This document shows positions 3,756 through 32,900 of a stretch of DNA of 60,676 bases, piece by piece. The first letter of the stretch is position 1. Each line of letters starts with the position of its first letter. The stretch is from Thraustochytrium aureum. Lineage: Eukaryota. The stretch covers positions 208,808-269,483 of the forward strand of contig BLSG01000329.1 of assembly GCA_012862495.1 (NCBI GenBank), given 5' to 3'. The notes beneath the pieces are model-generated. The model had not been told where the DNA came from. It saw only the letters and a program-made list of their open reading frames with translations, and did no database searches. Position numbers and translations under genes: made by a program.

Positions 3756-6038
3756 ATGCACAAGGCGGTCGCGACAGTCGGCTTGGGGCTCGTCCTGATT
3801 GGTCTCGTGTTCACGGGAGTGATCTCGGTGATTCAAGAATGGGTCAACGCGACCGTCCCCCCGATCGAGGCCTGCAACGAGAGCCCCGTCGGCAAGCTCG
3901 GGCTCTACAAGTCGACGTTTGACCCCAAGTGCGTGCTCGAGGACCCTGACGCGCCTGCATCACTCAAGCTGGGCTACGAGCGATTCACCACGTCAGAAAT
4001 GAGCACGACCGAGTTTTGGCCACTCTTCCCGTCGCAGACTGGCTTTGGTGGTGCATTTGGCGAGATCGAGTTCGAATCCTGCGAGTCGTTCTACGGAGAA
4101 GACAGCGAGAGCATGAAAGCGCTCAAAGACGGTGTCAGGGCCGTCGTGGACGACGGCTTTCGTCGCTCAGACGCCGGGTTGAACACCGCCTACACCGGCC
4201 TCGCGGCACAGATCGCCCTTGCATTCACCAAGGTCGACGAGGCAGTCGCCGGCCTATGGGTTGAGCAGCTCGGCTCCAACCTGATTCGCATCTACTCCAC
4301 CCTTGAGGCAACGCTGACCGCAGAAAAGGGCGGCGCTATTGGGGGCTTTCAAGGTATCGAGACCCTCATCAACGCCATCCTCCAAGGCGGCGCCGCCGGT
4401 CTCTTCGCCCCGGACACGACCTCTCTCGTTTACACAAACGTCCGCGCTTCGGGCCTCACCGACACTGTCAACGAAGGGGGCTCGGATCCCAAAGTCGGCC
4501 TCAAGCGCATGTGCCCTGGCTGTTCTTCGCCTTTCGACTTGATTGCCCTTGCAGTGCCCAAGGTGCTCACAGCTGTACCCGACTCTCTGGTCCAGCTTTT
4601 CAGCCTCCTCGACACCGGAATCGCCGCCTCGACCGCGGTCGGCAACTCGTGCCCGGACTACGACGCCCCGTCTCCCGAGTGCCAAGAGTTCGTGCTTGAC
4701 CGCTGCGGCGCACAGGTCACGCCGGCCGAGTGTGAGAGCGAGCTCGCCGCAGGGTTCACCCGTCTCAAGTCGTTCGCTGGAGCTATCCTCAGCTTTGACC
4801 TGTGCCAGGGCGACGCGAAAATGGACGACTGCCTCTTTGGCGGCGTGGTGAAGAGAAACAACTCTGACTTGGCGACGGTTTTGGACGTCAACTTCATCGC
4901 CAGCGAGTTCAACACCTTCCTTGGGATCGTGCTCGCTGGCACCGACCCCGCGGACGAGACCTTCGCTTTGCTGACCACCGCAAAGTTCCTTCTCGACACC
5001 TGCGCCGCCGCCTCGATGGAAACAGGCCAAGCGTGCTCTCAACTCTTCACAGGTCTGCCGCAAAACTTCACTGCTCCGTGGGACCTGTGCACTTTTGCGG
5101 CAGCCAGCGAAACCATCAACAAGGACGGCCTCCTCGTTCCTGGCTGCTCAGCGATCGACACAATCAACGTCCTGGGCCAAAGCCCTGCCCTTCTCAAGTC
5201 GATCCCCGAGGAGCTCCTCGAATCGGTTCCGGCGCTTCTCAACGCGATCCAAGGCTGTGCCAGTGCCAACCTGAGCCTCGAAGAGTGCGAAAGCCTGCTG
5301 GACGGGACCTTCTACAGCGGCTCGCTCGATATGGCGCAAAACCGCGTCCCCGAGGACTTTGATGACTTGTTCGCGCTCTGCCTCGGTGTGAAGATCAAGG
5401 CTCCTGGAGCGGCTTGCGACACCTTCACTGACTTCATCACACTTGCGTCTCAGAGCCCCGAGCAAGCCGCTCTGCGCCAGTTTTACGACGGCGTGGTCAA
5501 GCCGTGCACCGACGCCGGGATCACCAGCAGAGCAGAGTGCCGCGACCACATCGTCGAAATCAACACGAAGAGCGCCCTGACCAACTTTATTGATGGCAAG
5601 AACGCACAGGAGCGCATTGCAGAGTGCAAGGATGACGAGGAGGACCGTCGGCGCATTGCCCTCGCGCAGGTCCTCGTCCCGGTCTCGATCGCGGCATCTG
5701 GCCTGTCGCTCATCGTTGGGCTCATCAGCGTGCTGAAGAGCTCTGTCAAAGGTGTGCTCGCATCGTCAGCGTTTGCGCTGCTTGCCTGTGCCTGCGTCCT
5801 TTCGGGTCTGCTTCTCGTTAAGACTGCTCCAGTGTACAAGCGAGTTGGCAAAGAGTGCGAAGAGTACGAGCCTTGCTACGAGGCGGGGATCGCCTCGACG
5901 CTGGCGTACGTCTGCATTGTTGGCCCGCTCGTTGGCGGACTCTGCCTGGGCTTTTCAACGCTCTGCAGACGAGCTGGGGCGCGCGTCAACCAGAAGAGCG
6001 CGGATCTCTCCACGCCGCAGCTGGAGCAAATGTTCTGA
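3756..6038 (+). CDS. 760-aa four-TM membrane protein, claudin/PMP22-like, with very large Cys-rich first extracellular loop
   Basis: Intact ATG-to-TGA ORF with strong GC3 codon bias. One N-terminal TM and three C-terminal TMs. W...GLY...C follows TM1 and YEAGIASTLAYV...LVGGLCL forms the TM4 region. The CDS is secure; the family call is inference. Confidence 0.8.
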   Translation: MHKAVATVGLGLVLIGLVFTGVISVIQEWVNATVPPIEACNESPVGKLGLYKSTFDPKCVLEDPDAPASLKLGYERFTTSEMSTTEFWPLFPSQTGFGGAFGEIEFESCESFYGEDSESMKALKDGVRAVVDDGFRRSDAGLNTAYTGLAAQIALAFTKVDEAVAGLWVEQLGSNLIRIYSTLEATLTAEKGGAIGGFQGIETLINAILQGGAAGLFAPDTTSLVYTNVRASGLTDTVNEGGSDPKVGLKRMCPGCSSPFDLIALAVPKVLTAVPDSLVQLFSLLDTGIAASTAVGNSCPDYDAPSPECQEFVLDRCGAQVTPAECESELAAGFTRLKSFAGAILSFDLCQGDAKMDDCLFGGVVKRNNSDLATVLDVNFIASEFNTFLGIVLAGTDPADETFALLTTAKFLLDTCAAASMETGQACSQLFTGLPQNFTAPWDLCTFAAASETINKDGLLVPGCSAIDTINVLGQSPALLKSIPEELLESVPALLNAIQGCASANLSLEECESLLDGTFYSGSLDMAQNRVPEDFDDLFALCLGVKIKAPGAACDTFTDFITLASQSPEQAALRQFYDGVVKPCTDAGITSRAECRDHIVEINTKSALTNFIDGKNAQERIAECKDDEEDRRRIALAQVLVPVSIAASGLSLIVGLISVLKSSVKGVLASSAFALLACACVLSGLLLVKTAPVYKRVGKECEEYEPCYEAGIASTLAYVCIVGPLVGGLCLGFSTLCRRAGARVNQKSADLSTPQLEQMF

Positions 6039-6665
6039 CTCTGCGGGTCTCTAATTGTGAGCAGACCGAGCACCAAGTTCGATTTCTCGTGTCGGCCTAC
6101 AAGGTACGCGCCCAAACTTGGCTGGCGGAGGTAGCTCGAAGCGGAACGTCAGTTCCACTCCAGAAACTGGCCACGGCGGGCAGGACTAGCCTCGAAGAGG
6201 GCGCCAGTCAGGGGATCGACTGACCTCGCTGCGCGCTCCGTGTCTCGCGCTTGATTGAGACATCTATCTATCGAATTCATTGTTGTGTTTTGTTTTGTTT
6301 TGTTTGTTTCTAAGGTGCGGTTGCATCGAGCCAGCTTGCCACTTGCCGGTTGTTCTGCCCGCGTAGAACTCGGCGCTCGGGGCGTCGAGACAATGACTGA
6401 GACCCAACCCTGCGTTGCGGGCGTCTGTTGCAGTTGCATCTGGTTGGCAGAGTCCTGTGAGGCAAGAAAGCGACGAAGGGGCATCTCTCTACGCAACAGC
6501 CGCCGCACGCTGAAGAAGCCCCACCAGAGCCCGAATCGCAAGCGTGAAACTAAAGCTGAACTTGGTTTTGGCGTGCCAAACACTTCCAAAGCCAACGGGC
6601 TGGACCTCAAGCCAACTCTGCGAGCGGGAGAAGGCCAATGGGTCCCATTCCGTTCACCGGGAGCG

Positions 6666-8119
6666 CTACCCCGAGCCAGGGTCGGCGTCAACGCGTGCGC
6701 CATCGCTTCGGCGGACAGACTCTTTGCCTGCACGCGATGCGAAAGCTCGGGCACGCGTGGCTACATTTTGCCGAATGTTGTTGAAGAACAGGTTGTAGTC
6801 GTACGGATGCAAGTTGAGGCCCGGGAAGGATGCAAACAGCCAGGCAGGCCACAGCGCCCAACCTTGCCCAAACCGGGACGGAGGCGTCACGAAAAGATGC
6901 CCGTCCACGCACTGCGCATCGCTCACATTTGCCGTTAGCGCAGGCAACTGGACACGGTCTGCCGATCGTGTCACGCCGCGGAGATAGTTCCACATCGTCC
7001 ATGGGTGCATGAGGTCCAAGCCGCCCAAGTTGAGCTCCCGGCCGGCATACTCGCTGTCCGCTGCCCACGTTAGAGGGTTGACACAAACGGGGCGGTCGCT
7101 TGGATCGGCCGGAGGCACGTGAAGGAAGGCGGCCGGGTCGCCGCCAACGCCAAATGTTCGCCACGAAATAAGGCAGCCAGTGTCGTGCTCTTTCTTGCAG
7201 ACAGGGATGCCCTTGCCCCCATCCCCATCCTTGGCCGTGTACCTGCTTTCAAAGAGGGTCCACCCAGGGAGGTAAGCCGCCACGAGACTCTCGCGGAGAG
7301 GCCCCTCCGAGAAGAACTCTTGCACCAGCATCTCCCCAAGCACGCTTCCTTGCGAGTGCCCGGCGACAATGATGCCCCGCTGGCCGTCCCAATGCTCGCG
7401 GAGAAAGAACGTGAAGGCGGCTCGAACGTCTTCGTACGCCGTCGCCAGAGCTTTGGCCGCGTCGGGGTGGGAGAAACCGCCCTCCTGGAGGAAGGCGCCG
7501 GCGGACATTTGCCTGTAACGTGGGGCGAAAACACGGCCCACAACGTTGAACGCGTTCGCCTGCTGCGGCCCGATTGCGTCGTCGCTCAAGTAGGCTGTGA
7601 CAGAATGAATAGCCGGGGCGTTCCAGGACGCCCCGGTGTACCACGTCGTAGGGTGAAGGTAAAAAACTCTGCAGCGCCACAGACCCCGGCTTGCTCGCAT
7701 GTGACGCAGCCCTCCGGCACGGCCTCGGACGTGTCGCCTCTGTTCGGCATCATGCTCCAATGCTTTTGCAGTCCGTAGTCGGTGGGCGGGCCAACTTCAT
7801 AGTCCTCGAACTTGCCTGCAGGCGTGAAAAGCCAGCGGCCGGCTGCGTCCACGAGCGCGGTCTCCGCCCACGGTGCGAGGTCGCCGAGGATGAGGAGCTT
7901 GAGCTGCAAAACGGGGCTCAGCACTGGTGTCGCGAAGGCCACCAAAACCACAAAGAAAACCGCCACCTGGTCGCCTTCGTGCTCCACGTTGTGTTCCCGC
8001 GTGTACGCGCGAACGGCGTACTCCACCGCCTTGGCGCACGCAACGAGGAGGACGGCTTTCCGAACGAGACTGGGCGCGCTCCACCTCGAGCCGGCCCTGC
8101 CGGACGCATCCTTGGCCAT
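6666..8119 (-). CDS. DUF3089-family alpha/beta hydrolase (putative esterase) with hydrophobic N-terminus; frameshift near 7665
   Basis: Motifs PPTDY...W, VFYLHPTT, FAPRYRQ, IIVAGHSQGS (nucleophile elbow), VAAYLPG, GCLISWRTF, CVNPLTW, LHPYDYNLFFNNIRQN. The N-terminal part lies in frame 7586..8461. An alternative in-frame ATG sits at 8365. Confidence 0.82.
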
Positions 8120-8625: not shown

Positions 8626-11600
8626 ATGAAGCGCGGCCAGCTGCGCAAGCGAGCGAGGCGCGCAGAGGACGCGAGCCGCGACGTGGAGGGCGCCGGTGAG
8701 ACCCCGGAAGTCGAGCCCGCGGAGAGCGAGTCCGGTGAAAGTGCTAGTGACTCGGCTGCTGAGGCCGCGGAGGAGCTGCAGTCAGAGGAGGAGGAGGATG
8801 CTCACGAGCATGCCGAGGGCGTCACTCGCAAGACCGCATCCGACCCTAGGTTCGCGCTGCCGACCAAAGAAGAACAGGACCACCTGCGGCAAACCCGCAA
8901 TCTGTTCAAGNNNNNNNNNNNNNNNNNNNNNNNNNNNNNNNNNNNNNNNNNNNNNNNNNNNNNNNNNNNNNNNNNNNNNNNNNNNNNNNNNNNNNNNNNN
9001 NNNNNNNNNNNNNNNNNNNNNNNNNNNNNNNNNNNNNNNNNNNNNNNNNNNNNNNNNNNNNNNNNNNNNNNNNNNNNNNNNNNNNNNNNNNNNNNNNNNN
9101 NNNNNNNNNNNNNNNNNNNNNNNNNNNNNNNNNNNNNNAAGAACAGGACCACCTGCGGCAAACCCGCAATCTGTTCAAGTCCAACCTTCTGAAACTCGAG
9201 ATGGACGAACTCCTCAACCAAGTACGCGTGGACCCGGATCAGGCGACCCGGGAAAGCCTTCGAGGCGCTCTTGTGAGCATAAAGCGCTGCCTGGAAGGCG
9301 TCAAGCCTGTGGCGACGCTCAGCGCTGCGAGCGTAGGCGCGCAAGTCTCGGGGTGGGAAGGCCCAGCGGAGGCCGTTGAGCTGGAGGCGTTTGGGCCGCC
9401 CGAGCGCGTAGACGTGGTCGGCAGCTTTATGCTCGATACCATGACCAAGCCAGATCGCGTCATTGACATGGCCGTCACGATGCCAGCGGCCTGCTTCAAG
9501 CGCAAGGACTATCTGAACCGCCGCTACCACGACAAGCGGCTCATCTACCTCGGCGGCCTTGCCATGGCGCTCCAGGGCCTCGACGAGGTGGTACGGTCTG
9601 CAGAGCTGGTTGGTTTTGCCGGTGCGTCGGACAAGCCCGCGCTGCAGCTACGCCTTGTTGGCGCACGAGGGTCTCTGCTCTCAAAGTTTGCAGTCCGCAT
9701 TCTCCCAGTGCTCGCAGAGGATGTGTTCCCTCCGGGGCGCTTCCACCCAATGCAGAACAATGTTCGCGCCCTTTCTCACTTTGGCGCCAACGATGCGAGC
9801 CCAGACGCCGAGTCGTTTGGGACTCCGCGCTACAACATGAGCATTTTGGAGGACATGCCCTCGAGCTCGTTCAGAAGCCAGCTCGCTGTGCTCCATGCAG
9901 TCAAAGAGGCGTGCCCTTCTTTTGCGCCGACGACCGTTCTTCTCAAGGTGTGGGCTCGCGTCCGTGGCCTTGACAAGGCGCGGTCGCCTGACGCCTTTCA
10001 CGGCGGGCTACTCTGCATCTTGCTCGCTCATCTCGTCCTAGATCGCCGGGTCAACCCCAACATGAGCGTGCAACAGATGTTCCGAAGCTTTTTGGGCTTC
10101 CTCGCGGAACTCCCGGATCGGGCAGTCTTGCGGATGCGCCCGACGTTCAACGCGGAGCCAGGTACGTTTCTTGCCTCTTCGTCGAGCGCTTTTGCTCGGG
10201 CCGCCGGTTGTTGCGGCCACGTAGTCCCACCTCCTGTTTGCTCGCTTGCTCGCCGTTGCAGGCAAAGGACGACCATCGTTCATCCGCCAAGACTTGGCCA
10301 TGGTTGTTGCGAAATCAACGAAAATCGAAATCTCTGATGCAAAATGCACGGCGCGAATGCCTCGGGCAGGGCGGGAAGGGTTCGGCGCATACCTCGCTGC
10401 TCAGATTGCTAACGAACGGTCTCGCTCGCTCACTCACTCACTCGCGCCAGCCGTTCACGACGGGTTTGGTGACGAGGACTTGCTCAAGTCTTTCGAAGCG
10501 GTGCTCGTGGGTCCGTGCGGGCGCCTGAACCTTGCCTGGCGCGTTTCGAAGGCAGAGCTCGCAACGCTCAAGACAGAGGCAGCAAAGTCGCACGCTCTGC
10601 TGGAGAGCTCGGGCAAAAAGCGAGACGGCGGCCGCGATCTGTTCGGGGCACTCTTTACGACCAAAGCCGACCTCTGGCAACAGTTCGACAAGTACTTTGC
10701 AGTCCGCGTCCCGCGCGTAATGCCGAGCGCTGCGAGCCCGGTACCCAGCGGCTGTGCCGAAATGGTTTGTGATATGGGCTGGNNNNNNNNNNNNNNNNNN
10801 NNNNNNNNNNNNNNNNNNNNNNNNNNNNNNNNNNNNNNNNNNNNNNNNNNNNNNNNNNNNNNNNNNNNNNNNNNNNNNNNNNNNNNNNNNNNNNNNNNNN
10901 NNNNNNNNNNNNNNNNNNNNNNNNNNNNNNNNNNNNNNNNNNNNNNNNNNNNNNNNNNNNNNNNNNNNNTGGTTTGTGATATGGGCTGGGACATGTTTAC
11001 CCGCCGCCGCACCGAGCAGGTCTTCGAGCGCGCCTTTGTGGAAACAAAGCGAGCAACCACGCTTCGCGTTATTGCCAGCGGCGAAAGTGCCCTATCCATA
11101 CCGCAGTTCGTCTCGCCCGCGTCCAAAAAGGGCGGCTCAAAGAAGAAGGGCGCATCGGACACGGGCGCGGACGTTGTCTTCCTGGTGTGTCTGAGGCTGG
11201 ACCTGGTCAACGCGTTCCGCCTGATCGACAAGGGACCAAGCGCAGAGGACGCCAAAGCCGCCGCTACATTTCGCGCGTTTTGGGGTGCAGAAAAGGCCGA
11301 GCTGCGACGATTCCAGGACGGAAGTATTCTTGAAACGCTGGACTGGACCACGTCCGCGCAGACCGGCACGCTTGACGTGTGCGAGGCCATTGCAGAGCAC
11401 ATTCTTGTTCTGCACTGGCCGTTTGTCGCCAAAGCGAAAGGCGCCGCGAGGGTCAGCGTAGGAAAGGAGCTCGACGACGCGCTCCGCGTGCTTGATCTCG
11501 AACAAGCACGCCGCACGTTGCAGCCCGCAGCGGAAGACGGTGGCTTTCGCGATGTAATGGTTGTCTTTGACGGCCTGGTCTCCAGGTTGCGAAAGCTCGA

Positions 11601-13203
11601 CTTGCCCCTCACGATAACCAACGTGGTGGCCAACTCGGCGGCCCTCCGGTACGCATCGGCTGTGCAGCCGGCAGTTCACCCGTTTGCCTTTGGGCGTCGC
11701 GACAGCAAGCGCAACGCGGCGCTTCGGAGTGTGCAGCAGCGACAATCTAGCGGCGAGCCATCGACGAAGAGGCGCAAGGGCGACAGCGTGCGCGTATCGC
11801 GAGCCGTTGAGGCCATCGAGGCTGTGGTGCAAGTTGAATCCTCGGGCCAGTGGCCAGACGACCTCGACGCAATTTCCGCCATGAAGACGGCGTTTTACGT
11901 GCAGATTTGCGAGCGCCTCGAACGCGAGGCCCCCGGGATGCAGCGCTGCATCCCAGCCAGGTCGTGCGTCGAAATTCTCGTTTCTGGCTTTGCATTTCGG
12001 CTCACCTTGAGGCTTGACAAAGAACTCAGCCTCATGCGGTCGCCGCGGATGGCCTTCCTCGGCTCTGTTTCCCGAGCCGCAGCGCGCAAACTGCAGGAGA
12101 AGGCCTCTCTGCCGACAGAGAGTGACGAAAAGAGCAGTGCGGCGATCCTGGCTGAGCGCGCTGCGCATGTGGAGCGCAGCCTCATCCGCAAGCCTCTCCT
12201 GCACATGCACCTGCACGCCGTCCATACGTCTGGAGAAAGCACAGGCGGAGCGCGCGTCATGAGCCCCGTGGTGCGCCTCGCAAAGCTTTGGGTCAGCGGG
12301 CACTGCCTCTGGCCGCACATTTGCGAGGAGGCGATCGAGCTGCTTGTGGCTACGGTGTTTCTCCATCCTCAACCGCTTGAAGCCCCGCGTTCCGCCGCGA
12401 GCGGGTTCATGCGCTTCTTGGCCCTTCTGGCCACGTGGGATTGGGAGAATGAGCCGCTTCTGGTTGGCGTAGGTGACGGCTTTGCTGCGGAAGCCAGGAG
12501 CTCGGTCCTCAAGGCCTTCATGGACAGCCGCGACCGCGCCTCCGGCCCGCACATGTACATTGTGACCCCCGACGATGCCTCGTCTGGCTGGAAGCCGTAC
12601 TGGACAAGCCGCTCGCAGCCCGCTGCGGCTGCGCTAGACAGGATGCAAACGCTGGCACGTGACTCGCTCCGACTCTTGGAAAGCCTTCTCGCCATGCAGG
12701 CTGCCGGCAGCTACGACGGGCGCACCATGGGCGGCCTCTGGACTGCCGCTTTTCAGTCGGCCGCCGATGACGGGTTTTTCGACTTTGTTTTGCGCTTGCA
12801 CCCGCGACGCGTGCTGCACGAGGCAAACCTATCAAGCTCTAGTGACGCCAAGGTGTACAAAAACCTTGCCGTGGAGGAAAAGGTCTATGTCGGCGCCAAC
12901 CCGGTGGAATCGTACGCAGCTGACCTCGAGCAGGCTTTCGGGCACGTCTTTCAGGTGTACGTGGACCCGTTCAGGGGAACCGAAGTGGGGCTGCGCTGGC
13001 AAGACGGCGTCAAGGCTCCTGCACCAGCTCGAGTTGCTGTTGTTGGCGGCTCGATGCCGTTCGAGAATCACGAGCCTAGCAAGGGCAAGTCTGGGGCATT
13101 CTCTGTTGTCCCGAACGTGGCGGAGATCCTGGCCGACGTCGTGGATCTTGGCTTCGGCATGGTGACATCAGTATCACACAGTCCCAGCGCCCTATCCTTG
13201 TGA
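8626..13203 (+). CDS. NOL6: Nucleolar protein 6 / U3 snoRNP protein Utp22 (Nrap family)
   Basis: Motifs NLFKSNLLKLEMDELL, VVGSF, IDMAVTMP, KDYLNRRYHDKRLIYL, TPRYNMSILED, LLKVW, DKGP, FRAFWG.EKAELRRFQDGSILE, ESSGQWPDDLDAI, EEAIELLVA. Probable intron starts at 10162 (GTACGT) with an acceptor at 10261 or 10450, both frame-compatible. Two N-gaps are flanked by duplicated sequence. Confidence 0.95.
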
Positions 13204-13305: not shown

Positions 13306-16300
13306 TTACACGGCCTCGTAGCCGGCCCCGCCAGCCGCGGAAGTAGCTGTAGTTGCTGGGGCAGAAGCAAAGCGGGTCATTGGTGCAGAGCCCCGCCGAC
13401 GCCCGAGAAAGCGCTTCGAGGCATGCCTCGCCCGTCCGAGGGGGTCAAAGACCTTGCTTACGTTCTTCGTCAGATCTTCATCGGCGACAAAGTGGGCCTT
13501 CACCTGCGACGAAGCGCGGCGAAACTGGTTGAAGGCGATCGGGGCCAGGTAGTCCAGCAAGGACACGAGGAAGACCGTCGAGATGAGCTGGTTCCAGTAA
13601 TAGCGGCCGAGCTCCTCCGAGAACACGCTCACCCCCGTGCTCAGTGCGACAGCTACAAATACAACCAAGACCACACCGACCACATTCAAAACGAGGGCGC
13701 CCAAGAGCCACCAAGTGAAGCTGGCTGCCACGCGGGCCTGGCGTACCGTGAGCACCACCGTGATGACCACGAAAAGGCTGCCAGAGAGCACGTCGAACGA
13801 AGCATCGTAGTCGTTCCAAAACACCAGCAGGAAAGCCAGCGCGCCGTGAGCCAGCCCGCGCAGGATCTGGGCGTCCACAAATGCCGGGTGGAGGATCCTG
13901 TTCAGTCGCCCAACGTCATAGCTCCTTGGCTCCTTGAGGACGTCGTACACGTGATAAAAGTCGCGATCCAGACCGCCGATAACGAACACGGGAATGGCGA
14001 TAAAGGCTTGAAAGACCACGTACTGGAGGTTGGTGAATGCCGGCGTTCCGCTGAAGCCGCAGACGAAGTTGTAATAGAAGCTCACGAATGTGAACAACAG
14101 GTTGCCATAAAAGACAATGCTGATCGCTTTCGCAATTCGGATATAGCCGAGGCGGCCGTGCACGAGCAAAAGCGGCGCGAGAAACTTGAACTGCGCAATG
14201 TTGAAGTCGGCCGCATTCACCGCGTGCGTGCCCTCCTTGCCAGAAATGCCCACGCCAACGTGGCCGACCTCGATCATTGGCACATCGTTCGCTCCGTCCC
14301 CGATTGCGAGCGTGATGGGCTCGGGCGCAACATTGTCCCGAACGAGCTGCACCAACTGCGCCTTTTGCCCAGGCGAGGCACGGCAGGCGATGACTACGCT
14401 ACACATCCGCCCGAGTTTCAGGAACGCAGCTTCGAGCGCTTCATCCTTCTCCTTCGCGATGATGTGGTGCAGCACTTCGCCGTCGACGACAAGAGCCAAG
14501 TTTGGGTCCGCGACGACTTGCTCATGCCTGAGGCGGCGCTTGCACATGCTGGCAAATTGAATCAAGCTGGAGCAGAACCCCTTCCGCTCCTTGTCCTCCT
14601 CTGCCTCGCATAATTTGCCGCTGACATCGTACTCGACGATTTTTGCTTCAATGAGCGTCCTGAGGCGCACCTGCAGCGCTGTGCTTGAAGTCGTTGCGGC
14701 GCCTGCTTCGATCGGAGGGCTAGCCGTCACTCCGTCGCTCGCGGCATCAGGCTGACCAGGCACATCGTCAGCAGGGGGCCTTGAAAGCGCGCGTTCTGAG
14801 GCGGTGGCCCGCACGGCAAGCTCCGGCGCTGAGCTAAAGCCCGTCGCCTTAGTGCGGAAGGTCTCGCGCNNNNNNNNNNNNNNNNNNNNNNNNNNNNNNN
14901 NNNNNNNNNNNNNNNNNNNNNNNNNNNNNNNNNNNNNNNNNNNNNNNNNNNNNNNNNNNNNNNNNNNNNNNNNNNNNNNNNNNNNNNNNNNNNNNNNNNN
15001 NNNNNNNNNNNNNNNNNNNNNNNNNNNNNNNNNNNNNNNNNNNNNNNNNNNNNNNNNNNNNNNNNNNNNNNNNNNNNNNNNNNNNNNNNNNNNNNNNNNN
15101 NNNNNNNNNNNNNNNNNNNNNNNNNNNNNNNNNNNNNNNNNNNNNNNNNNNNNNNNNNNNNNNNNNNNNNNNNNNNNNNNNNNNNNNNNNNNNNNNNNNN
15201 NNNNNNNNNNNNNNNNNNNNNNNNNNNNNNNNNNNNNNNNNNNNNNNNNNNNNNNNNNNNNNNNNNNNNNNNNNNNNNNNNNNNNNNNNNNNNNNNNNNN
15301 NNNNNNNNNNNNNNNNNNNNNNNNNNNNNNNNNNNNNNNNNNNNNNNNNNNNNNNNNNNNNNNNNNNNNNNNNNNNNNNNNNNNNNNNNNNNNNNNNNNN
15401 NNNNNNNNNNNNNNNNNNNNNNNNNNNNNNNNNNNNNNNNNNNNNNNNNNNNNNNNNNNNNNNNNNNNNNNNNNNNNNNNNNNNNNNNNNNNNNNNNNNN
15501 NNNNNNNNNNNNNNNNNNNNNNNNNNNNNNNNNNNNNNNNNNNNNNNNNNNNNNNNNNNNNNNNNNNNNNNNNNNNNNNNNNNNNNNNNNNNNNNNNNNN
15601 NNNNNNNNNNNNNNNNNNNNNNNNNNNNNNNNNNNNNNNNNNNNNNNNNNNNNNNNNNNNNNNNNNNNNNNNNNNNNNNNNNNNNNNNNNNNNNNNNNNN
15701 NNNNNNNNNNNNNNNNNNNNNNNNNNNNNNNNNNNNNNNNNNNNNNNNNNNNNNNNNNNNNNNNNNNNNNNNNNNNNNNNNNNNNNNNNNNNNNNNNNNN
15801 NNNNNNNNNNNNNNNNNNNNNNNNNNNNNNNNNNNNNNNNNNNNNNNNNNNNNNNNNNGTCGAGGCAACAGGCGGGAGATCCAAGCTCGCCAGGTCTTCC
15901 AGAGCCTTGTTCGTTGCGCGCCCATAGATTCTCCCGTCGACCGAGCAGGCGACCAGGCGCATTTCGTTCCGCGTCAGAGTCCCCGTCTTGTCAGAAAAGA
16001 CCCACTTGACTTGGCCAATCTCCTGGGCCAACTGGGTGGTGTTGCAGCTAGCGAACTGGTTTGAGGCAGCGTCGAACATGTTGAGGTCCCACGAGATAAA
16101 CTTGGCCTGGATCACGTTCATGCCCTCTTGCACGGCATAGAGGAGGATGGGGAGGATCTGGCGGTACAGGATGAGGTACGTCAGGAGGAGGGCCAGAGAG
16201 GAGGGCAAAATATACCCCGTGGATTCACTGGTGTACATCATGTACCACAGCGACGACGAAGGCTCGTACGCAAAATTCACCAGACACACGGACACGATGA

Positions 16301-17258
16301 GAAGGATGACGAGCATGATGAGGACCGTAACGATGACCTGGTTGGCCATTTTGTCCACCTTGGATTGCTTAATCTGCGTGCTCCCCTGGGACATGAGCGT
16401 CTTCGTATCCTTGCCGGTGTGCAGCACGAGCGCCCAAATCCACGTCGTGTTGCGCAGCTGCGAACCCCGGAGGACAATGTGGTCGCTGGAAAACCAAAGC
16501 TCGCCCTCCTCTGCGCCTTGCGCATCTCCGTTGCCCCCTTGGTCCGCCTTTTCGGCGCAGCGGAGCATCACGGTGCGGAACGAGGAGAGCGCCGGAGTCG
16601 GGGCCTCGCAGTAAACGGTGCGACTTTTGAGCCAGTTGAAGGTCTTGACCACATCTGTGCATTTCAACAACACCTCGGGGTTGCAATAACGCTTTTTCAG
16701 GTACGTCTCACCGTCCACGTTGGCAGTCTGGACGTAGCAGACCGGTTCCGCGTCAGTGTCGCTTGTGCTGATGAGCAGAACGTCAGCGGGGACAATCTGA
16801 TCCTTTAAGACCCGCACAAGGTCGCCCCGACGGACGGCGCCCCACGTGGTCGCCTCGAACGCCAGCGAGTCTGGGGAGAGCACGTAGGTCTCCTCGCTAT
16901 TGGTCGCTGCGTCCTTGCGGCGCCGCGCGTTGTCGTCTAGTCCCTCGTTGAGCATGTTCAGCCCGAAAATGATGATGAGGATGAATAGGTTTCCCCACGG
17001 CTTTTGAGGCGAGTTGAACAGGTTGGTGTACGTCCCGAGCAGCATGATGAAGACGATGAAGGTAAAGTAGATGTTGCCGACGCGTCTGTACTGGAGCAGG
17101 AATGACCGAGGGAAGAAACTCAGACGCGTGTACTTTGTTGTTGACACGACGTTGCTCCCGCGGTTGTCGCCAGCCTGCAGCGGATCAACGCGAGTCCATC
17201 CCTCGAACCGTGACTCGCACGCATCCTCGCGGCTCGCCTGCTCTCCTTCCTCTGGCAT
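13306..17258 (-). CDS. P4-type ATPase (phospholipid flippase), interrupted by N-gap 14870-15858
   Basis: NVVSTTKYT, VQTANVDGETYLK, LRGSQLRNTTW, FSDKTGTLTRNEM (phosphorylated Asp), CRASPGQKAQLV, AIGDGANDVPMI, GVGISGKEG, LLLVHGR, and ten TM segments. Confidence 0.93.
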
Positions 17259-18735: not shown

Positions 18736-19130
18736 ACCGCCCGCGCTCGCGCTCGCTGACTGTTGCTCGCACTCAAACCCAACCGTCGAACCTAACCCGC
18801 AGCTCTGCCCTAACCTGAGGAACGGAAACGCACACGCACGCACGCACNNNNNNNNNNNNNNNNNNNNNNNNNNNNNNNNNNNNNNNNNNNNNNNNNNNNN
18901 NNNNNNNNNNNNNNNNNNNNNNNNNNNNNNNNNNNNNNNNNNNNNNNNNNNNNNNNNNNNNNNNNNNNNNNNNNNNNNNNNNNNNNNNNNNNNNNNNNNN
19001 NNNNNNNNNNNNNNNNNNNNNNNNNNNNNNNNNNNNNNNNNNNNNNNNNNNNNNNNNNNNNNNNNNNNNNNNNNNNNNNNNNNNNNNNNNNNNNNNNNNN
19101 NNNNNNNNNNNNNNNNNNNNNNNNNNNNNN

Positions 19131-23948: not shown

Positions 23949-26900
23949 CGACTCGGGACGCGAATTTGAGCGAGGCGCTGTCGAAGGGCCCGCACCTTGC
24001 GCACCATGATGAATAAAGGATCCACCAGCAAGAGGCTCGGGCGCGGCGTGACTGTGCATGCGCGACACTACGAACCGGCACTGCTGCAACATGCGCCCGT
24101 ACTCCTCGTGAGAAATCGCAAAGGCCTTGTCGGAAATGGCTCCCGGATGACCTCCTAGCTGTTTGACGATCTCATGCCCTGCCACCGCGTCGAGAAGGTC
24201 GTAGCGTTGGCGCCCCGTCCCAGAGGCACCACCAGGCGAAGGGGTCGGCAGCATCGCCGGCTCCGCTTCGATGCGGCCGTGGTTGTGCGGCGAGAGACGA
24301 ACAAAAGCAGCGCCGCGTTTCGCGGAGACAGCGGGCCGAGTTGCAAAATGATCGCCGAATGCGCCAGGATACGGCCCGGCTTTTCACGGCAGGTGAGCAG
24401 CAAACGCACCCCCTTCGTCTCATCTAAGAGACGTCCAACAAAGTGCCGAAACAAACTTGAGGGGTGCGCGAGCTCGTCGCAATGATCGAGCACAAGAACA
24501 AATTGACGATAGCGAATCAGGTCGAACAGGTGCTCCATCCGCGCCTCGAGCGACGCCGATGCGGCATCCGCGCCGAGCAGACCCTGCGCAGTCGCCGACC
24601 CACCCTGCTGCCGCGCGGCTGCGCTATCCACGGTTTTATCGAGAAACATGTCGACAAGTCGCTCCACCTCGCCAACGCCTTCGAGTCTAAGAAAGAGCAC
24701 GCCTTCCCGGAACATGTTGCGGTCGCTTGCATAGTTTGCCACCGCGACGGCAACAGAGGTTTTGCCGACCCCGGCTGGGCCAGTCACCGACACGATGCGG
24801 CGGCGACGCACCGCGTCCAGGACCGAGTACACGTCCACGTTTCGCCCGACAAAGTCCTCAGGCACTGCAGGTGCGTGGCCGCCGCGCCACAGGCTGCGCC
24901 GCCTCTCATAGCNNNNNNNNNNNNNNNNNNNNNNNNNNNNNNNNNNNNNNNNNNNNNNNNNNNNNNNNNNNNNNNNNNNNNNNNNNNNNNNNNNNNNNNN
25001 NNNNNNNNNNNNNNNNNNNNNNNNNNNNNNNNNNNNNNNNNNNNNNNNNNNNNNNNNNNNNNNNNNNNNNNNNNNNNNNNNNNNNNNNNNNNAGTTACGT
25101 CAACTGCCTTTTTGGCGATCTCAAAGGCTGTCCGCACCGTGTCGCCAATCGCGAGCGACAGGTAGAAAGCTCGCGTGAACGCTTGGGCCGCTTTGTCGAG
25201 GATTCGAGCTCCGACTTGCACACAGACAACGTGCGCCACGCCGGCCTGTATGAAGGCGCGCCCAGCATACTCAGAGTGGCACGCAGACACGAAGACGAAT
25301 TTTACCTTGCTGGCAACCCCGTCAACGCCGCCACCGGCAAGGCGTCGTAGGTTTTCAGTCGAGAGGACCTGCACGCCACCCGACTGGTCCTCAAAGAGCA
25401 GGGCGTTTGGGCTGCCGTGGCCCGAATAGTGGATTGCCCGGCACCGCATGGTTGCCTCGCTGCGAAGCCGGTCGGCGGTGGCAAATCCAAACGACAGATC
25501 AATATCACGCGATGCCTCGACAAACGTTTGCCAAAGGATGTCGCGCTCGCGCTCGAAATCGATACTCTCCACAGGCTGCAGCCGCCCTTGCGCGTCTCGG
25601 GCAGCGAGTGGGATCGAGAACATGACTGAGAGCCGCAGCCGGTCCCCTGCGACCTCCACGGCGTCTCCATTTCCGCTTGCTGGCCTAGCAGTCTGCGCAA
25701 GCGGCGCCTCACTGGTCGAAGGCGGCTCGTTCGTGGGCGGCACCTTTGGCGAATGCTGAGGCTGGCTAGCCGCGGGACCGACGCTAGGTGTCGAGGCGGC
25801 CATCGACTGTTCGGGCGTCGCTGGCTGCGCCACCTCGGCACCGGCTTGGGCAGCGCTGGCACCTTGCTCCGCATGCGGGAAGCTCTGTTGTCTGGCTCCC
25901 AGCTTCAACGGGTTTGAAAGCAATCTGCTTCGATCTGTCGGCTCCTCCCTGCTCGAGGTGTGGGCCCCGTTCGGGAGGGTCAGGTTGAGCCACACCAGAA
26001 TTCGCGTCGCCGTTTGGGCCCGCCGCAACTCTGGGTTGCAAGCCCGTGACTGCACTTGAGGAATTGGCCGCGCCCGCGGCCGATGTAGACGGCTCCTCCG
26101 CGCTGCCACCTTGGGCGCACGTGACCGTCTCCGAAATCCAGCTCTGCCTGTTCACAAGGAGGGCGCGCTCAATCTGCTCCAGGTCCTGCGGACGGATGCC
26201 CGGGTTGCCCTCGAGCACAAGAAAGTGGAGCTTTGACTTGGCGACGGCGAAGCGCAGCTCCTTTCCTAGTGCCTCACCCAACGAATTGAACGACAAGTCG
26301 AGCTCGAGGAGAGCGGCCGCCCCAGCCACGCACTCAAGGACAGCCTCGTCGATCACGGGCTTGCGAAGTCCATTTGCGCTCAGCCCGAGGGCCCGAAGTT
26401 GCGAGCCCCCACTGGCGATCCATTTCAGAATCGCAGCAACAGCCCCCTCCCCAAGACTATTGCCAGAAAGGTGGAGTTCCGAAAGCGGGCCTTTCACCTC
26501 TGGGTCCAGCAAACCTTGCTTGGCTTTGCCTCCGATGAGTGCGGCGAGCGTCTCTGTTGCGGAGACCCCGATGGCGTTGCGCGACAAGTCGAGAGACTCG
26601 ATTGTGCCGCACTGGCCGGCGCAGCAGAGCGCATCCAGGACCCGCGCACAGCCAACATCCTTCAAGTTGTTCCCAGAAAGATCCACCCACTTGAGCACGT
26701 GCTTCGGGCGTGGGCCGCCTAGTTGACCAAGCGCAATTCGCGCCGGCCCGGCTGGCGCCAGCAGTCGTAACAGAGGCTGCAGGTCCGAAACACGGAAGCC
26801 GTTGTTTCGGATTCCAAGCCCAAGCACAGAGAGATTGTTGTGCCGGACCTCAAAACAGCTGGCGATCTCCGCCAAGTCGCTGCGGGACAAAACGCCGTCG

Positions 26901-29900
26901 AATGTGCACCATAGCACGCTGCTCGGCAAGTTGCGGACTATGTTCGCGTAGAGGTCGCCAGTGTCCAGGTGGCCGGGGTCAGACGGAGGCTCCGTGTTGG
27001 AGAATGCAACCGAAGTGATCACCGGGAACCTAAAGAGGCAGTCCATCAGGTTGTCGTGAAAGTCACTCATCCCCGGGGCCGCTTGGCAATCCCTGATGCA
27101 GAGCGACCAGGGGCGCTGCTCGTCCCCTTCGGCCGAGGTCGAGAGCTCGCCGCGGCCAAAAGCTGGTCCTCTGTCTTGACCAATCACGTCGACGTCGATC
27201 TCGCTAGAGGGTTGCAAAGGGAAAGCCTGCAGACCACTGGTGGCAATCTCGCCCGCGATGTGCTGCTCTTGCGCCGAAAACTTGGCGATGAGCTTGTGGA
27301 TGATACGACCAAAGCGAAACGACAAATCCCGCCCGTTCGGGAGCGTTATCGCGAGAGGAAGGCGCGGAAGGACGGTGCTAACATCTGCCCTTTGAATACG
27401 TCCAGCATCTTCAGCAGGCGCAAAGTAGGACACAGGAAGCAGGCAGCGTCGGCGCTGGAGGAGCGAAGGGCACTGGGCCTCAAAGGCGACACGACAGGCC
27501 GCCAACATGGCCCGCACGACCCCGCGGGTGCCTACGAGCAGTTGCTCGCACCCACTCGAGTCCACGGCTCGAAGCGAGAATCGGCTCGCTGGTCCAGCGA
27601 CAGCGCACGAGCCGGCAGCGCTCTCTTCAGCCACAAGCGCACTAACGAACGCAGCCGCGCGCTGCTTGCCGTCAAGGCCTGTTTGCCCGGACTGCTTGGC
27701 AAACAAATACCTGGCCAGTACGGTCTCTTGCTCCACCAAGTGCGGAGCGCTTCCGGGGGGGCTGAACACGCGGACGGCTTCGTCGTCGTCCGAGTTGTAT
27801 GAGACGGATGCACGCAAGCCGCACCCGATCCACCGACGCAGCCAGCGAGGCTCTGCGAAGGCAAGCTTTTTGCCTGTCAGGTGCCCGAGAAGCCGCGCGG
27901 AGGTGGCCGAGAGCTTGCCTTGTGGCGAAGATCCCGACGGCACCGTCCGCTGGCCGCTTGGGACCGCCGCAGACTGGCTCGCGCCGTGCTCAAAGTCGAA
28001 GAGATCTTCAATGTGAGCAGGCAGGCCCGATGTCCCACCCAGGGTTTCAAGTGCAGCCTCCTCGGTTTCAGAGTGCCCTTGCTTGTGTCGGCGCCTCCAC
28101 CGCGACGCACGGCGACTCGCCGTCGGCTCGTCTTCGCCAGCCTCGAAGAATGACGGTGCACTGTTCGCGCGCTTGCTGACGACAACCACCCCGTCCACCT
28201 CCTCGCCAACCCCAGCGGCGCCACGCGCTTGGGGGCGGAAAAGCGACATTGTTTCCAGCAGCCCAGAACCGGCAAGAACGGCCCAGAAGGCCCTCTGGAT
28301 ACGCGGGTCGCGAAGCTGAATTCGCCAGGTCGCACAGGTCGCGGCGAGCGCGACTGCGTCCATGACTTGCTGATGCTCCAGCGAGAGCATCATGATGTGC
28401 CAGTTAAAGAGCCCGCGAACATCCCGCCCACAAAGCTGCACGTCATTGATGCCCCCAGAGAACCCGAGCCCGACCAGGACGTCCTCAGCGCGAAGCTGGA
28501 GTTGCCTGTCCGGGTCGCCACCGACGGAGAGCTGCACCAGGTGCTCGAGCGCGAGCCGTGCGATGTCAAACTTGAACGTGCTTGCAGACGGGCATCGCGT
28601 GATGGAAGCTAGCACACGGCACGCTTGGCACTGAATGACAGAGGCGGGGGAGCCCAGGAGGAGGATGCTGATCAACAGGATCTGCTCCACGCGATCCAGA
28701 AACATTGCAGTCACGCGCTGCCAGAGTTCGACCGCCGGGCCAGCGGCCCCCGTCGCCTCGATTCGGAGATCTAACGGGCTGCTCACGGTTCGGCCGAGCT
28801 GCGGCGGAGTCACGCCGAGCGCGCCTGAAGGTCGCCGCAGCCCCGGCCTGCGGTACCCCGACTGCGGCCTCCAACANNNNNNNNNNNNNNNNNNNNNNNN
28901 NNNNNNNNNNNNNNNNNNNNNNNNNNNNNNNNNNNNNNNNNNNNNNNNNNNNNNNNNNNNNNNNNNNNNNNNNNNNNNNNNNNNNNNNNNNNNNNNNNNN
29001 NNNNNNNNNNNNNNNNNNNNNNNNNNNNNNNNNNNNNNNNNNNNNNNNNNNNNNNNNNNNNNNNNNNTTGCTTGGTGAGCCACTTCGATGTCCGCGCCCT
29101 GTGGCTCGCGCAAATGTACCTGTGTCAAAGCGGCTGTCCCTTCGCGCTGATCGGACGTGCGCCCCTGCGAACCTCGCTCTTTGCTCTGGGCAATGTCCTG
29201 CGCCACAGCTGGCTCGCCAACAAGTCCGTACAGCGTGCCAAGAGCCCGGACAGCATACTCGAAAACGCCGCAAACCGCCACACTCGCTCGCGTATCGAAC
29301 GAGGCGTTTGCCAGATTGCCGAGGACAAGCCAGCTATCTATTCGAACTTCCCGATCCTGCGAGCTGAGGTCGCAGGAAGGCTTTTGAAGAGGGATTTCCT
29401 GGACCAGGCCAAGGACAGCGCTCGAGACGTTGGCGAGCTCTAGCACGTCGCAAGCCTTCGCGGCCCCCTCTGTAAGGCCCAAGACGGTCCGTAGCGCATG
29501 CAAGGATACGAAAGCGTCCGAGCGCACTCCACAAAGCCTAGCCAGGAGCTTGCCAAATTGCGGTGAGTCCAGGAACGGCGTCAACTGGTCACGTGGCAGC
29601 TCTCGGCAGAAATTGTGCACCGCAAGCGCGACGTATCGCAGTTCGAGAGAAACCCCATCCAGTGTAGAGGGAGCGGCGTAGCTCGTAACTGCCGAATTTG
29701 CGGATCGCTGGCCGGTCCCAGGGAAGAGCGGTCCTGGTTCGTTCGCGATCCCAGCCGTGCTAGACGAGGATATGCTTCCTCTGGCAGAGTCACGCTCCTC
29801 CCGCGCAATTGAAATGATGTCGCGGCGCGAGAGGCGGCGGCCAGAATTCGAGAACCGTCGACGGATGTCGACTCGGCTCGCATTGAGGGCGACACCACCA

Positions 29901-32900
29901 CTCCCTTGGCCCGAGTCGGACGTCGAGTTGGAGGCACCGCCGCCGCTTGAATGGCGCTGGAAACTTTGGGCTTCCTGTGGTTCGAGGTCAACAGGAGTCT
30001 GCTGCTCGAGCTGGACCGGCTCCCTCGCTGCGTTCAAGGTCTGCTCTGCGAGCGACAGAAGACCCTCCATACCTGCGCGGCCACACAGGAGCTTGCGGCA
30101 TGGCTGCAAACCAGACAGCGAAGTGAAGCATGCCAACGTCACGCACCGCACGTTCGCAGGAAGCTCCGCCCGCTTTGCGAGCTCGATGAGGGCTGGTAAC
30201 GCACCGGAACTGACGAGCTGCGCCACAATGAAGCCAACGACGACGAGATCCACCCCGAAATCGGCCCCCGCATGCGGGGCGTCCGGATCGATCTCGACAG
30301 GGGGGGCCGCGCCACTTGTGAGCCAGTAGAGGCTCGTTACCGAGTGGAGAACGAGCTCTGGGTCGCTTCTGTCCAAGAAACTGATCAGCGGCGGAAGGAT
30401 CCCGCTTTCTAGGAGGCCCTGATGCGCGGCTGGGTGCTGCGCGAGTAGCGATATGGCAAAGGTCGCGAGTTGCCGCGACTCGTTCCAGGCGATGCGCATC
30501 TCAAGGAGCTCTTCCTCGTCCTCGGCGCCGAGCGATCCGCCTGTGCCCATGCTGTCCATCCCAGCGCGGGGAAGTTGGCTTGTGGTTACGTCAACGAGCA
30601 ACAGAGCGGCTTCCTTTGTTAAACGCGCAGCCCATGGCGCTGCCCGGGCCTCTGCCAGTGTGATTCCAGACACTGAACGCCGCCGCGGGCCATTGGATCG
30701 CTGAAATGGGTCGCACTCCGTCCTTCTCCCCGAGGCATTCGAGACGCTGGTGCGAGATTGGCCGCCGCTCGTTTCGCGTACTAGCGCACCAAGGTCGAGT
30801 GCTCCGTGCTTAGCGCCAGAACGACTTGACGGGCCGCACTCGCTTTCAGACGCGGCGTCTTCGACGGCGTCGCGCGTGTGGAAGATGAGGCAAAGGTTTG
30901 CAAGTGCCAATGCCGCTTCGCGCTGCGTGAATGCGCATCCGTTTGGGCGGTCCGGCCAACTCGGTTCCTCGCAGCAGTAGCATGGCTGTTCGATCAGCAC
31001 GCGACAAGCCGAAACGACAGAGCTGAGCTCAGACTCAAAGGCCTCAGCAACTCTGGAAGGGTCTAGGGCGGGACTGGCCCCGCCCTGCCCAAGACCTCTC
31101 TCGCTCGGTACGTCGACCCAGGATCCTGACGCCATTGCCACGATTGTCATCGAGATAGCGTGCTTGAGCTTCGGGTTGCTTGCGGCGCGGTGCCCATTGA
31201 GAACAGCAGCAAGCGTGCTGATCGCCCCGCCTTGGCATGCGTCGATCTGGCTCAAAGTGCGGATTTCAGCACTTCTGTGGTGGTCTCGCACGAGATAGCT
31301 CAGTACCCGGGCTGCGTTGAGCTGGGCTTGCTCGTCGCCGGAGCGAAGGAAAAACAAAAGCTCTTGCACGCTATCAGCGGTCCCTTCGTGCACCCCGTAT
31401 GCTCGCAGCGGGTCGTTGTCCTCTGCATCCTCGTCTTCCATCGCGGCCCCACCTCCTGGTGGCGGGCTTCCAGGTTTTGGGGACTGTGATGTCTGCAACT
31501 CGGGGCTTGTGTGCTGACCGCCCATCGCATCGTGGATAGCTGTCTGAGCTCTCCCTCCTAGTTGCGGAGCAGGTTGGCCAGCGAAGGTGTAGTCTTGCTC
31601 AACATTTGGCATATCCACGGCCGGGCTGATGCCTTCTGCAGGCACTGTCCCAACAGTAGCAGACCCGCCGGGTCGCTCAGATTCGCTAAGACCAACTTGG
31701 GGTCCCGCATTAGGGGCCTCGAGCTCGGGCGTTAGGTTTTTGACCACGCGTTGCGTTTGGTCCAGCACAGCAAAGAGGCGGTCATTGAGTCCAAGTAGGT
31801 CAGCTAGAGCCTCGTCCCTCTTGGCTGCGCAAATCATGTTGTACAGCTTGTGGCGAGCTACCTTGGTCTTGCGCTCCAGCTCAGAAGCGAGCTCGCGCGC
31901 GAGCCCAGCGTTGCGCGGGAGGGTGTCGACGATAATTCCCAAGTGAGCCTCCATTGCCTCCATCTCGTCGCTGATGCTAACGATGCGGTCCTCGTCGCAG
32001 GAGACCGCAGCGAAAGCAGCAAGCTCCCCACGTGGCGCACTGGTCTCCCTAGTCCTGGGCGCTTGGCTGGTCGCGGACTCGCCCTGTGAAACGTTTAATG
32101 CGCTCGTCCAGCTCTGCGAGCCCTCACTGACAGGTTCAGGTGCCTCCTCTGCCTCGCCGAGCGACACCATGGAAGCAATCGTGGATCCAAGCGTCGAGGC
32201 TAGCTCAGCGGCTGTGTCAAAGTGTGTGCGCAGCCCAGCTGAGCCAAAGCTGCCTGAGTCGTCACCTACAGATTGCGGCGAGGCGGAGCTCCGCGCGGAA
32301 ACGCTTTGCGCGGTCCCAGAACGCCGCCCCCGCTGGCCCTCGCGAGGTTCGGCCTCATCACTGCCAAAGTAGCGCTGGTGTCCTTTTTTAAGGGCTTTGA
32401 GGATGAGCTTGCGCGGCATGCGCGTCGCTCGATGAAGTAGGTCGTTCGACTGTACCATGCCGTCGGGCTCGGAATGCGCTCCGTCGAAGGAAAACCTCCA
32501 GGCATCTGTACCCCAGGCAGCCCCTCGGGCCGTGCTAGCGGTAGACTCGTCGTCAATTGCAGCGCGGTTAGGGGCAGTGGGCGGTGAAGCCGACGACGTT
32601 GCGCTTGTCACGCCTTCAACTGCGCTGGCCGCTGCAGCTGCCGCCGCGGATGCAGCCTTAGTTACAGCAGAGAGAGCCAGCGAAGGGGACAGCATTTCTG
32701 CATCCGGAGAGGGCGAGGCAAAGGCAGGGTCGAGCGACGCTGGCGCTATCTCTGCGAGCGAGTCGGCAGTGTGGCCAGTCCATAAGAAGCCAGACCCGAC
32801 CCCAAAGTTTCCGATGATCACGACGCCGGGTGACCTCACCCCAACTGTTGGCCAAAGACAAGCAGGGAGTCCCGCGCGTTCAGTACCAGTGAGCGTGCAA

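Follow-up and report, generated by a model that had tools for sequence, protein, structure and literature searches.

The claudin fold, marked in animals by a W-GLW-C-C motif in the first extracellular loop (ECL1) (PMC11275452), has counterparts in unicellular eukaryotes. Claudin-like proteins occur in choanoflagellates (PMC9729800). The amastins (Pfam:PF07344) are trypanosomatid surface glycoproteins that have been modelled on claudin-15 and bear the signature F/W-LW-C-C, and their knockdown changes the contact between parasite and vacuole membrane (PMC4671664). CLAMP, an apicomplexan four-transmembrane claudin-like protein, acts after host-cell contact (PMC10690463). We describe P0001, a protein encoded at 3756–6038 (+) of a 60,676-nucleotide stretch of Thraustochytrium aureum (GCA_012862495.1, contig BLSG01000329.1, positions 208,808 to 269,483; the window). 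That it consists of a claudin-fold base with a large insert in ECL1 is nearly certain. We tentatively read it, with slightly less than even confidence, as a conserved membrane base that may display a fast-evolving, likely glycosylated ectodomain for surface contact or recognition.

Layout of P0001 and its family

The layout of P0001, in window coordinates and with the basis of each assignment, is as follows (TM, transmembrane helix; ECL2, second extracellular loop; pLDDT, predicted local distance difference test; aa, amino acid residues).

3756..6038, +: whole open reading frame (ORF) of P0001, 760 aa; no intron indicated
3759..3836, +: TM1, aa 2–27, predicted uncleaved, first of four bundle helices (hydropathy, model, structural alignment)
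3837..4082, +: claudin-type base of ECL1, aa 28–109 (model, conservation)
4083..5624, +: inserted ectodomain, aa 110–623, 514 aa, predicted all-helical (model, alignment)
4107..4319, +: predicted 70-residue helix, aa 118–188, which likely forms a stalk rising from the claudin base (model)
4323..4595, +: insert segment modelled with low confidence, aa 190–280, pLDDT 29–49 (model)
4902..5051, +: partial repeat unit, aa 383–432, helix-C416-x10-C427-helix (leave-clade-out profile)
5052..5294, +: repeat unit, aa 433–513, with Pro, C445, C464 and C501-x9-C511 (profile, hhalign)
5337..5540, +: last and best conserved repeat unit, aa 528–595, with P532, C542, C554 and C584-x10-C595 (alignment, profile)
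5604..5738, +: return helix with invariant C624 and D630/Q638, running into TM2 in the model (alignment, model)
5745..5822, +: TM3, aa 664–689 (hydropathy, model)
5823..5888, +: ECL2, aa 690–711, with A-P-V-Y motif, C701/C707 pair and a predicted strand at 707–710 that includes Y708 (alignment, model)
5889..5966, +: TM4, aa 712–737 (hydropathy, model)
5967..6035, +: cytoplasmic tail with terminal EQMF, poorly conserved (alignment)

The ORF is intact, with its sole stop at the end. Between the window and the contigs of sequencing run X1, the coding sequence shows 20 differences, of which 16 are synonymous (25% expected; p = 3e-7). This excess indicates that the frame is under purifying selection, and P0001 is confirmed as a real, conserved gene. 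No intron is indicated, as no joint within the coding sequence was listed among the contigs of four runs. No sequencing run listed as containing P0001 sequence is recorded as RNA; contigs that span the ORF occur in two runs from a single study presumed to be RNA, from which transcription does not follow. Immediately after the stop, at 6039–6104, the X1 and X3 contigs omit most of the sequence and retain 19 letters. The ends of these gaps are not intron-like, and deletions in some strains within the 3' untranslated region are the probable cause.

A full HMMER scan over 1.84 billion cluster representatives (E 0.001 or better) returned 61 relatives of 112–1494 aa with the same layout, and the best-matching stretch of every one takes in one end of P0001. 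A word-indexed protein search returned 0, 1 and 3 matches and is uninformative on the absence of fused, short or distant forms. Two alignments were used. A1 contains P0001 and 60 relatives, omitting P0014, a 1494-aa fused model; A3 contains 63 aligned sequences (rows), namely P0001, 58 matches and 4 added close relatives, omitting P0014, P0028 and P0054. Of the A3 rows, 51 are near full length, including four near-duplicate pairs. Conserved across the family are C40, G-x-[LI]-G-x-[YF], C59, F-x-x-L-F-P-x-Q, C109, D630, Q638, A-P-[VI]-Y and Y708; C624 is present in all 63 A3 rows, and aa 80–110 form the most strongly conserved region.

Twenty relatives were looked up. One is a named thraustochytrid protein, the hypothetical protein GBG24339.1 of Hondaea fermentalgiana; among the others, one is labelled Durusdinium trenchii calmodulin and three "hypothetical protein". 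The link to labyrinthulomycetes raised in the initial annotation thus holds at the family level only, through one Hondaea relative. P0014 (CAK9101710.1), provisionally labelled Durusdinium trenchii calmodulin, is cut off in ECL2 and fused to an unrelated EF-hand-like region, and it probably represents a fused gene model. Single family copies are present at four metagenome loci, three of them amid intron-poor eukaryotic genes, and a comparison of the window with these four loci (L002 and L003 being the same region) revealed neither synteny nor tandem copies. Literature searches on claudins in thraustochytrids, protists or Hondaea and on labyrinthulomycete tetraspan proteins found no account of the P0001 family.

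Predicted claudin fold and topology

AlphaFold2 run on A3 gave a model with a mean pLDDT of 77.8, whereas the single-sequence model (pLDDT 43) was discarded. Confidence is at least 91 over aa 1–130 and at least 90 over aa 581–740, falls to 73–86 over aa 381–520 and lies below 50 over aa 190–280; along the 118–188 helix it drops from about 92 to 63. Four strands are predicted in ECL1 (30–33, 46–48, 52–55 and 80–83) and a fifth in ECL2 (707–710), and the return helix and TM2 are continuous in the model over aa 617–661. In a structure search independent of Foldseek, against 48,161 PDB representative chains, the top 11 were all of claudin fold (two chain identities were taken from title and length). 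They include claudin-15 (Z 15.8, root-mean-square deviation 3.4, 168 of 181 residues), MP20 (Z 15.7, 161 of 166 residues), TARPs, claudin-19, GARLH4, claudin-4 and one designed claudin fold, and were followed by generic four-helix bundles at Z 12.7 or lower over 97–121 residues. A second structure comparison agreed with this ranking. Foldseek returned nothing from the PDB at E 0.001, its matches to claudin-15 and TARPs having a probability of 1.0 over 100–126 columns, and nothing credible for the P0001 model among viral structures. The claudin-fold scaffold proposed in the initial annotation is supported by the alignment-based model, in which the core has a pLDDT of 90 or more, and by its 11 best PDB chains, with Foldseek E values above 0.001.

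Sequence searches gave fainter signals. P0001 itself had no match in the PDB, the family profile reached TARP gamma-5, claudin-18 and LIM2 only at E 0.3–9, and the C-terminal profile had a single unrelated match (E 5.2). A match of the family profile to a Helicobacter adhesin (E 0.009) was judged to be due to chance, given its high composition bias. In Pfam, TM2–TM4 of P0001 matched SUR7/PalI (PF06687), TM140 (PF14985) and LHFPL (PF10242) at E 5e-4 to 4e-3, and the C-terminal part matched Amastin (PF07344) at E 0.0013, with 19.1 bits against a cut-off of 27.2. We take the SUR7, Amastin, TM140 and LHFPL families to belong with the claudins; no claudin-group model scored above its cut-off for P0001, the best being TM140 (20.4 bits vs 30). 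Of 61 rows, 19 matched Claudin_2 at E 0.1 or better, with 4e-5 as the lowest value. An Atlas search of P0001 had a top score of 0.81, to be read as a lead only, with an amastin-like cluster third (0.81).

The structural ranking also bears on a different role. TARPs, GSG1L and GARLH4/LHFPL4 are ion-channel auxiliaries, and DUOXA1 serves DUOX. P0001 could likewise be an auxiliary subunit or trafficking chaperone whose TM bundle and base dock on a partner while the insert contacts the partner's ectodomain. TARPs are on a par with claudin-15 at the highest Z values (16.3 vs 15.8), GARLH4 scores 14.3 and DUOXA1 11.7 over 182–186 residues; the conserved part comprises TM2–TM4, F-P-x-Q and A-P-V-Y; and CLAMP, too, acts as part of a complex, together with a protein that spans the membrane once (PMC10690463). 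However, a 4.6-fold range of insert sizes and an insert identity of 36% over a TM identity of 94% (see below) would be ill-suited to a fixed partner, and the window and the four related loci have no neighbour in common, although such linkage is not to be expected in eukaryotes. We regard this role as a serious candidate but a somewhat unlikely one.

Four hydropathy peaks (aa 8–26, 639–657, 670–688 and 719–737) agree with the model. Over 51 rows, the N-terminus carries 46 positive vs 8 negative charges and the inner loop 81 vs 8, and 215 of 224 N-glycosylation sequons lie in ECL1. A protein with four TMs, both termini in the cytosol, a large ECL1 and a short ECL2 is predicted. The initial annotation had noted that its first hydrophobic segment might instead be a cleaved signal peptide, which would leave a three-pass protein with a large N-terminal ectodomain. 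The segment does lie at the extreme N-terminus behind a short basic stretch, and the sequence-only claudin-type matches cover just the C-terminal part. In the model, however, TM1 is a bundle helix (aa 2–25, pLDDT 94–97, a range that holds over aa 1–30), and the structural alignments begin at residue 1 and cover nearly all of claudin-15 and MP20. The median uncharged run over 51 rows is 24 residues; the h-regions of signal peptides are usually shorter. Since the alignments from residue 1 and the 24-residue run are joined by the positive-inside bias and the sequons of ECL1, cleavage is very improbable.

The first loop of P0001 (aa ~28–638) is about 610 aa long and holds all 5 sequons and 22 Cys (3.6%). 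Of the "huge Cys-rich loop" described in the initial annotation, the size therefore stands, but the Cys enrichment is moderate rather than extreme.

Claudin signature, proposed disulfides and tail

The residues of the ECL1 base are W29, C40, G-K-L-G-L-Y, C59, F-x-x-L-F-P-x-Q (87–94) and C109. The motif W-x19-GLY...C was correctly noted, W29 being separated from G49-L-Y by 19 residues and followed by C59, as were RIALAQVL leading into TM2 (from aa 633), YEAGIASTLAY (aa 708), LVGGLCL in TM4 (725) and QMF (758). Over 51 rows, the signature W is W in 12 and F in 34. The third position of GLW is never W, the triplet being GVY in 16 rows, GLY in 10, GLF in 7 and others in the rest. The W-GLW-C-C signature is thus recognisable but degenerate. 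In claudins the two Cys that form the ECL1 disulfide follow GLW, but C40 of P0001 precedes GLY. C40 and C59 occur together in 47 of 51 rows and are jointly missing from the other 4, and C109 and C624 are invariant; ECL2 has no Cys in 44 of 63 rows, two in 19 and never one. From these patterns we infer disulfides C40–C59 and C109–C624 and local pairs in each repeat, a wiring that appears to be changed relative to that of claudins.

Among the 63 C-terminal tails, 14 fit a PDZ class pattern, 19 end in Y, 9 are otherwise hydrophobic and 21 are none of these. The EQMF end of P0001 is hydrophobic but matches none of three simple PDZ patterns, and QMF is not conserved, which leaves the suggested PDZ-binding tail doubtful. 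The motif K-[VIM]-[DE]...Y closes 18 of the 63 A3 rows, mostly those of one 16-row clade together with P0005 and P0010; it may act as a signal for sorting or of PDZ type, and P0001 lacks it. With its degenerate signature, ECL1 of about 610 aa and unconserved tail, P0001 falls in the claudin superfamily by fold but outside the claudins in the strict sense.

In its strongest form, the junction role suggested in the initial annotation would make P0001 a strand-forming, claudin-like protein, perhaps sited at the bothrosome or at contacts between ectoplasmic nets. Its near-complete claudin fold would suit such a role, as would a Cys near the end of TM4 in 41 of 63 rows, where palmitoylated claudins have one, and tails ending in Y, V, F, L or I in 42 of 63. 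Claudin strand contacts, however, use the surfaces of the extracellular helix and the beta-sheet, and the insert lies just before that helix and over the sheet; a long stalk would be expected to separate membranes rather than seal them, and the signature is degenerate. None of the 18 net or bothrosome proteins of the ectoplasmic-net proteome, themselves still candidates (PMC12221091, section 9), is described as claudin-like, in a comparison made by description only. The terms claudin, PMP22 and amastin and two family motifs are absent from the supplement text searched, for which inclusion of candidate table S1E is unconfirmed (PMC12221091). A strand-forming role is improbable.

The inserted ectodomain

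The insert is placed between the last strand of ECL1 and the helix that runs on into TM2. In P0001 (aa 110–623) it has a net charge of -36 and 18 Cys. Over 51 rows, its length from C109 to C624 varies from 125 to 580 aa, with short inserts accounting for 4 changes on the core tree. The number of insert Cys is even in 47 of 51 rows and tracks length (rho 0.87), and Cys spacings of 5–12 make up 154 of 445, vs 80 in shuffles. It had no Pfam match and no usable Atlas match, in agreement with the initial view of an unrecognised large domain in ECL1. Nor was its fold matched in whole-model searches, in which the listed matches are taken up by the claudin domain; the insert was not modelled by itself.

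Part of the insert is built of degenerate four-cysteine repeats, predicted to be helical. When a profile of the last unit (~aa 528–600) was run against 48 rows, 9 had further copies upstream that scored at least 10 bits, compared with 0 of 960 shuffles. In P0001, a profile built without the query clade scored 16.7 bits at aa 383–432 and 11.8 bits at aa 432–513, values reached by 0 of 500 shuffles. With hhalign, unit 433–513 matched the last unit with a probability of 69% (E 4.4e-5, 68 columns), the Pro and four Cys being in register. As for saposins, no SapB was among the 24 Pfam families matched by 61 rows (E 0.1), and the unit has four Cys, not six, which appear to form local pairs.

Identities over TM2–4, N-terminal base and insert are 94/84/36% for P0022 and P0023, 87/64/33% for P0011 and P0012, and 97/99/82% for P0023 and P0078, the last being a less biased pair. 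Judged from such pairs, the insert appears to diverge far faster than the base, a contrast that is partly built in by clustering at 50% identity.

The composition of the insert is also compatible with another setting. It is net negative in all 51 rows and has amphipathic helices, and P0001 might be an endomembrane protein (endosome or vacuole) whose acidic amphipathic helices would face the lumen and handle lipids or particles resembling lipoproteins, on the model of TTYH2, with the K-V-D-x-T-Y tail serving for sorting. TTYH2 transfers lipids in endosomes (PMC12328215). The structure search lists TTYH chains (Z 11.8 and 9.5), in which the helices of the membrane region likewise continue into an ectodomain made of helices, and the K-[VIM]-[DE]...Y tail is present in 18 of 63 rows. 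Those Z values, however, lie within the range of unrelated helical bundles, the 24 Pfam families include no saposin or other lipid-binding family, P0001 is without the tail motif, and a fast-diverging insert is not expected in a housekeeping lipid carrier. This reading is decidedly unlikely.

Proposed function

A surface contact or recognition protein fits best with a constant base carrying a variable, acidic and sequon-rich ectodomain. Such a protein might work as follows: i) the claudin-fold base (aa 1–109 and 617–745) would anchor the insert in the membrane, ii) the C109–C624 disulfide would pin the insert to the base, iii) local disulfides would staple every repeat, iv) gain and loss of repeats would set the reach of the ectodomain, and v) at the plasma membrane or the ectoplasmic net, the ectodomain may bind a ligand displayed by food particles, by other cells or by viruses. 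By analogy, P0001 would act more like the amastins or CLAMP than like a strand-forming tight-junction claudin.

Several points weigh against this reading. The role in adhesion or recognition is putative, and most of the solved claudin-fold matches are channel auxiliary subunits, not adhesins. Within the insert portion of the P0001 locus, only 2 of 14 differences between strains alter a residue. Comparison of strains thus shows the insert to be under purifying selection here, and the locus does not behave as an allelically hypervariable self/non-self locus. Because the library keeps only proteins less than 50% identical, any two that resemble each other in the base are bound to differ in the insert. 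The co-loss of C40 and C59 amounts to just 2 tree changes, too few for significance. In 39 of 48 rows no upstream repeat was detected at 10 bits, and aa 285–365 of P0001 were not detected as a repeat, so that repeats account for only part of the insert. Finally, unlike the arrays of amastin genes, no second copy is present in the window or in the four related loci.

A bolder version of the contact and recognition reading is that Labyrinthulomycetes made the claudin fold a receptor chassis, with length-variable, disulfide-stapled helical modules that are rapidly replaced between gene copies, giving the net a repertoire of sensors and adhesins for food, kin nets and viruses. We consider it unlikely; if true, the modules would possibly be a new fold.

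Other features of the window

The genes around P0001 are ordinary eukaryotic ones (SART-1, Nrap, P4-ATPase, ankyrin and ABC1 kinase). Its convergent neighbour at 6666–7700 (-) matches DUF3089 (E 3e-49) and is covered by contigs in the runs. The window belongs to a scaffolded draft and contains seven runs of N (8911–9138, 10783–10969, 14870–15858, 18848–19130, 24913–25092, 28877–29067 and 33119–33329). The genes for Nrap (9201–13203, +) and the P4-ATPase (13306–17258, -) span or abut such gaps, and their apparent splits are not trustworthy. A 2522-aa ORF at 25784–33352 (-), with an unusual mix of SPRY, GAT, Armadillo and LRR domains, also crosses N gaps. At 47794–51147 (-), a glycoside hydrolase family 5 domain follows a long low-complexity N-terminal region.

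Comparison with known claudin-fold proteins

As claudin-like proteins are known from choanoflagellates and, in the form of amastins and CLAMP, from parasites, their occurrence in a protist is unsurprising; the novelty lies in a modular ectodomain built into ECL1. The matched claudin-fold proteins have short first loops, and a module of 125–580 residues extends the range of the fold. The insert may adopt a repeat fold that has not been described, and the family, with its named Hondaea member, offers a concrete target for work on the molecular parts of the ectoplasmic net.

P0001 resembles the classical claudins (claudin-15 4p79, claudin-19 3x29, claudin-3 6ake and claudin-4 5b2g; Z 13.7–15.8 over 159–170 residues) in its predicted four-TM bundle and in a predicted extracellular sheet to which ECL1 contributes four strands and ECL2 one. 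It differs from them in having G-[VLI]-[YF] for GLW and no conserved PDZ tail, at 15–18% identity, and in an ECL1 of about 610 aa vs about 50 (PMC4671664). TARP/CACNG, GSG1L, GARLH4 (LHFPL4) and MP20/LIM2 share the fold at tied Z values of 14.0–16.3 and show that it can serve jobs outside the tight junction; unlike P0001, they are animal proteins with short loops, and identity is 9–16%. The profiles of SUR7/PalI, TM140 and LHFPL, 180–201 positions long, leave no room for the insert, and their scores are below the curated cut-offs.

Amastins, at about 200 aa, have a short loop and form large gene families, whereas the P0001 family has inserts of 125–580 aa, single copies in the loci seen and no LW, and P0001 stays below the PF07344 cut-off. 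CLAMP, set beside P0001 by description, is likewise a claudin-like protein of unicellular eukaryotes, acting at cell contact. In CLAMP, however, the additional domain is a proline-rich tail in the cytosol, and reach outside the cell is provided by its partners CLIP and SPATR, whereas the additional domain of P0001 lies within ECL1.

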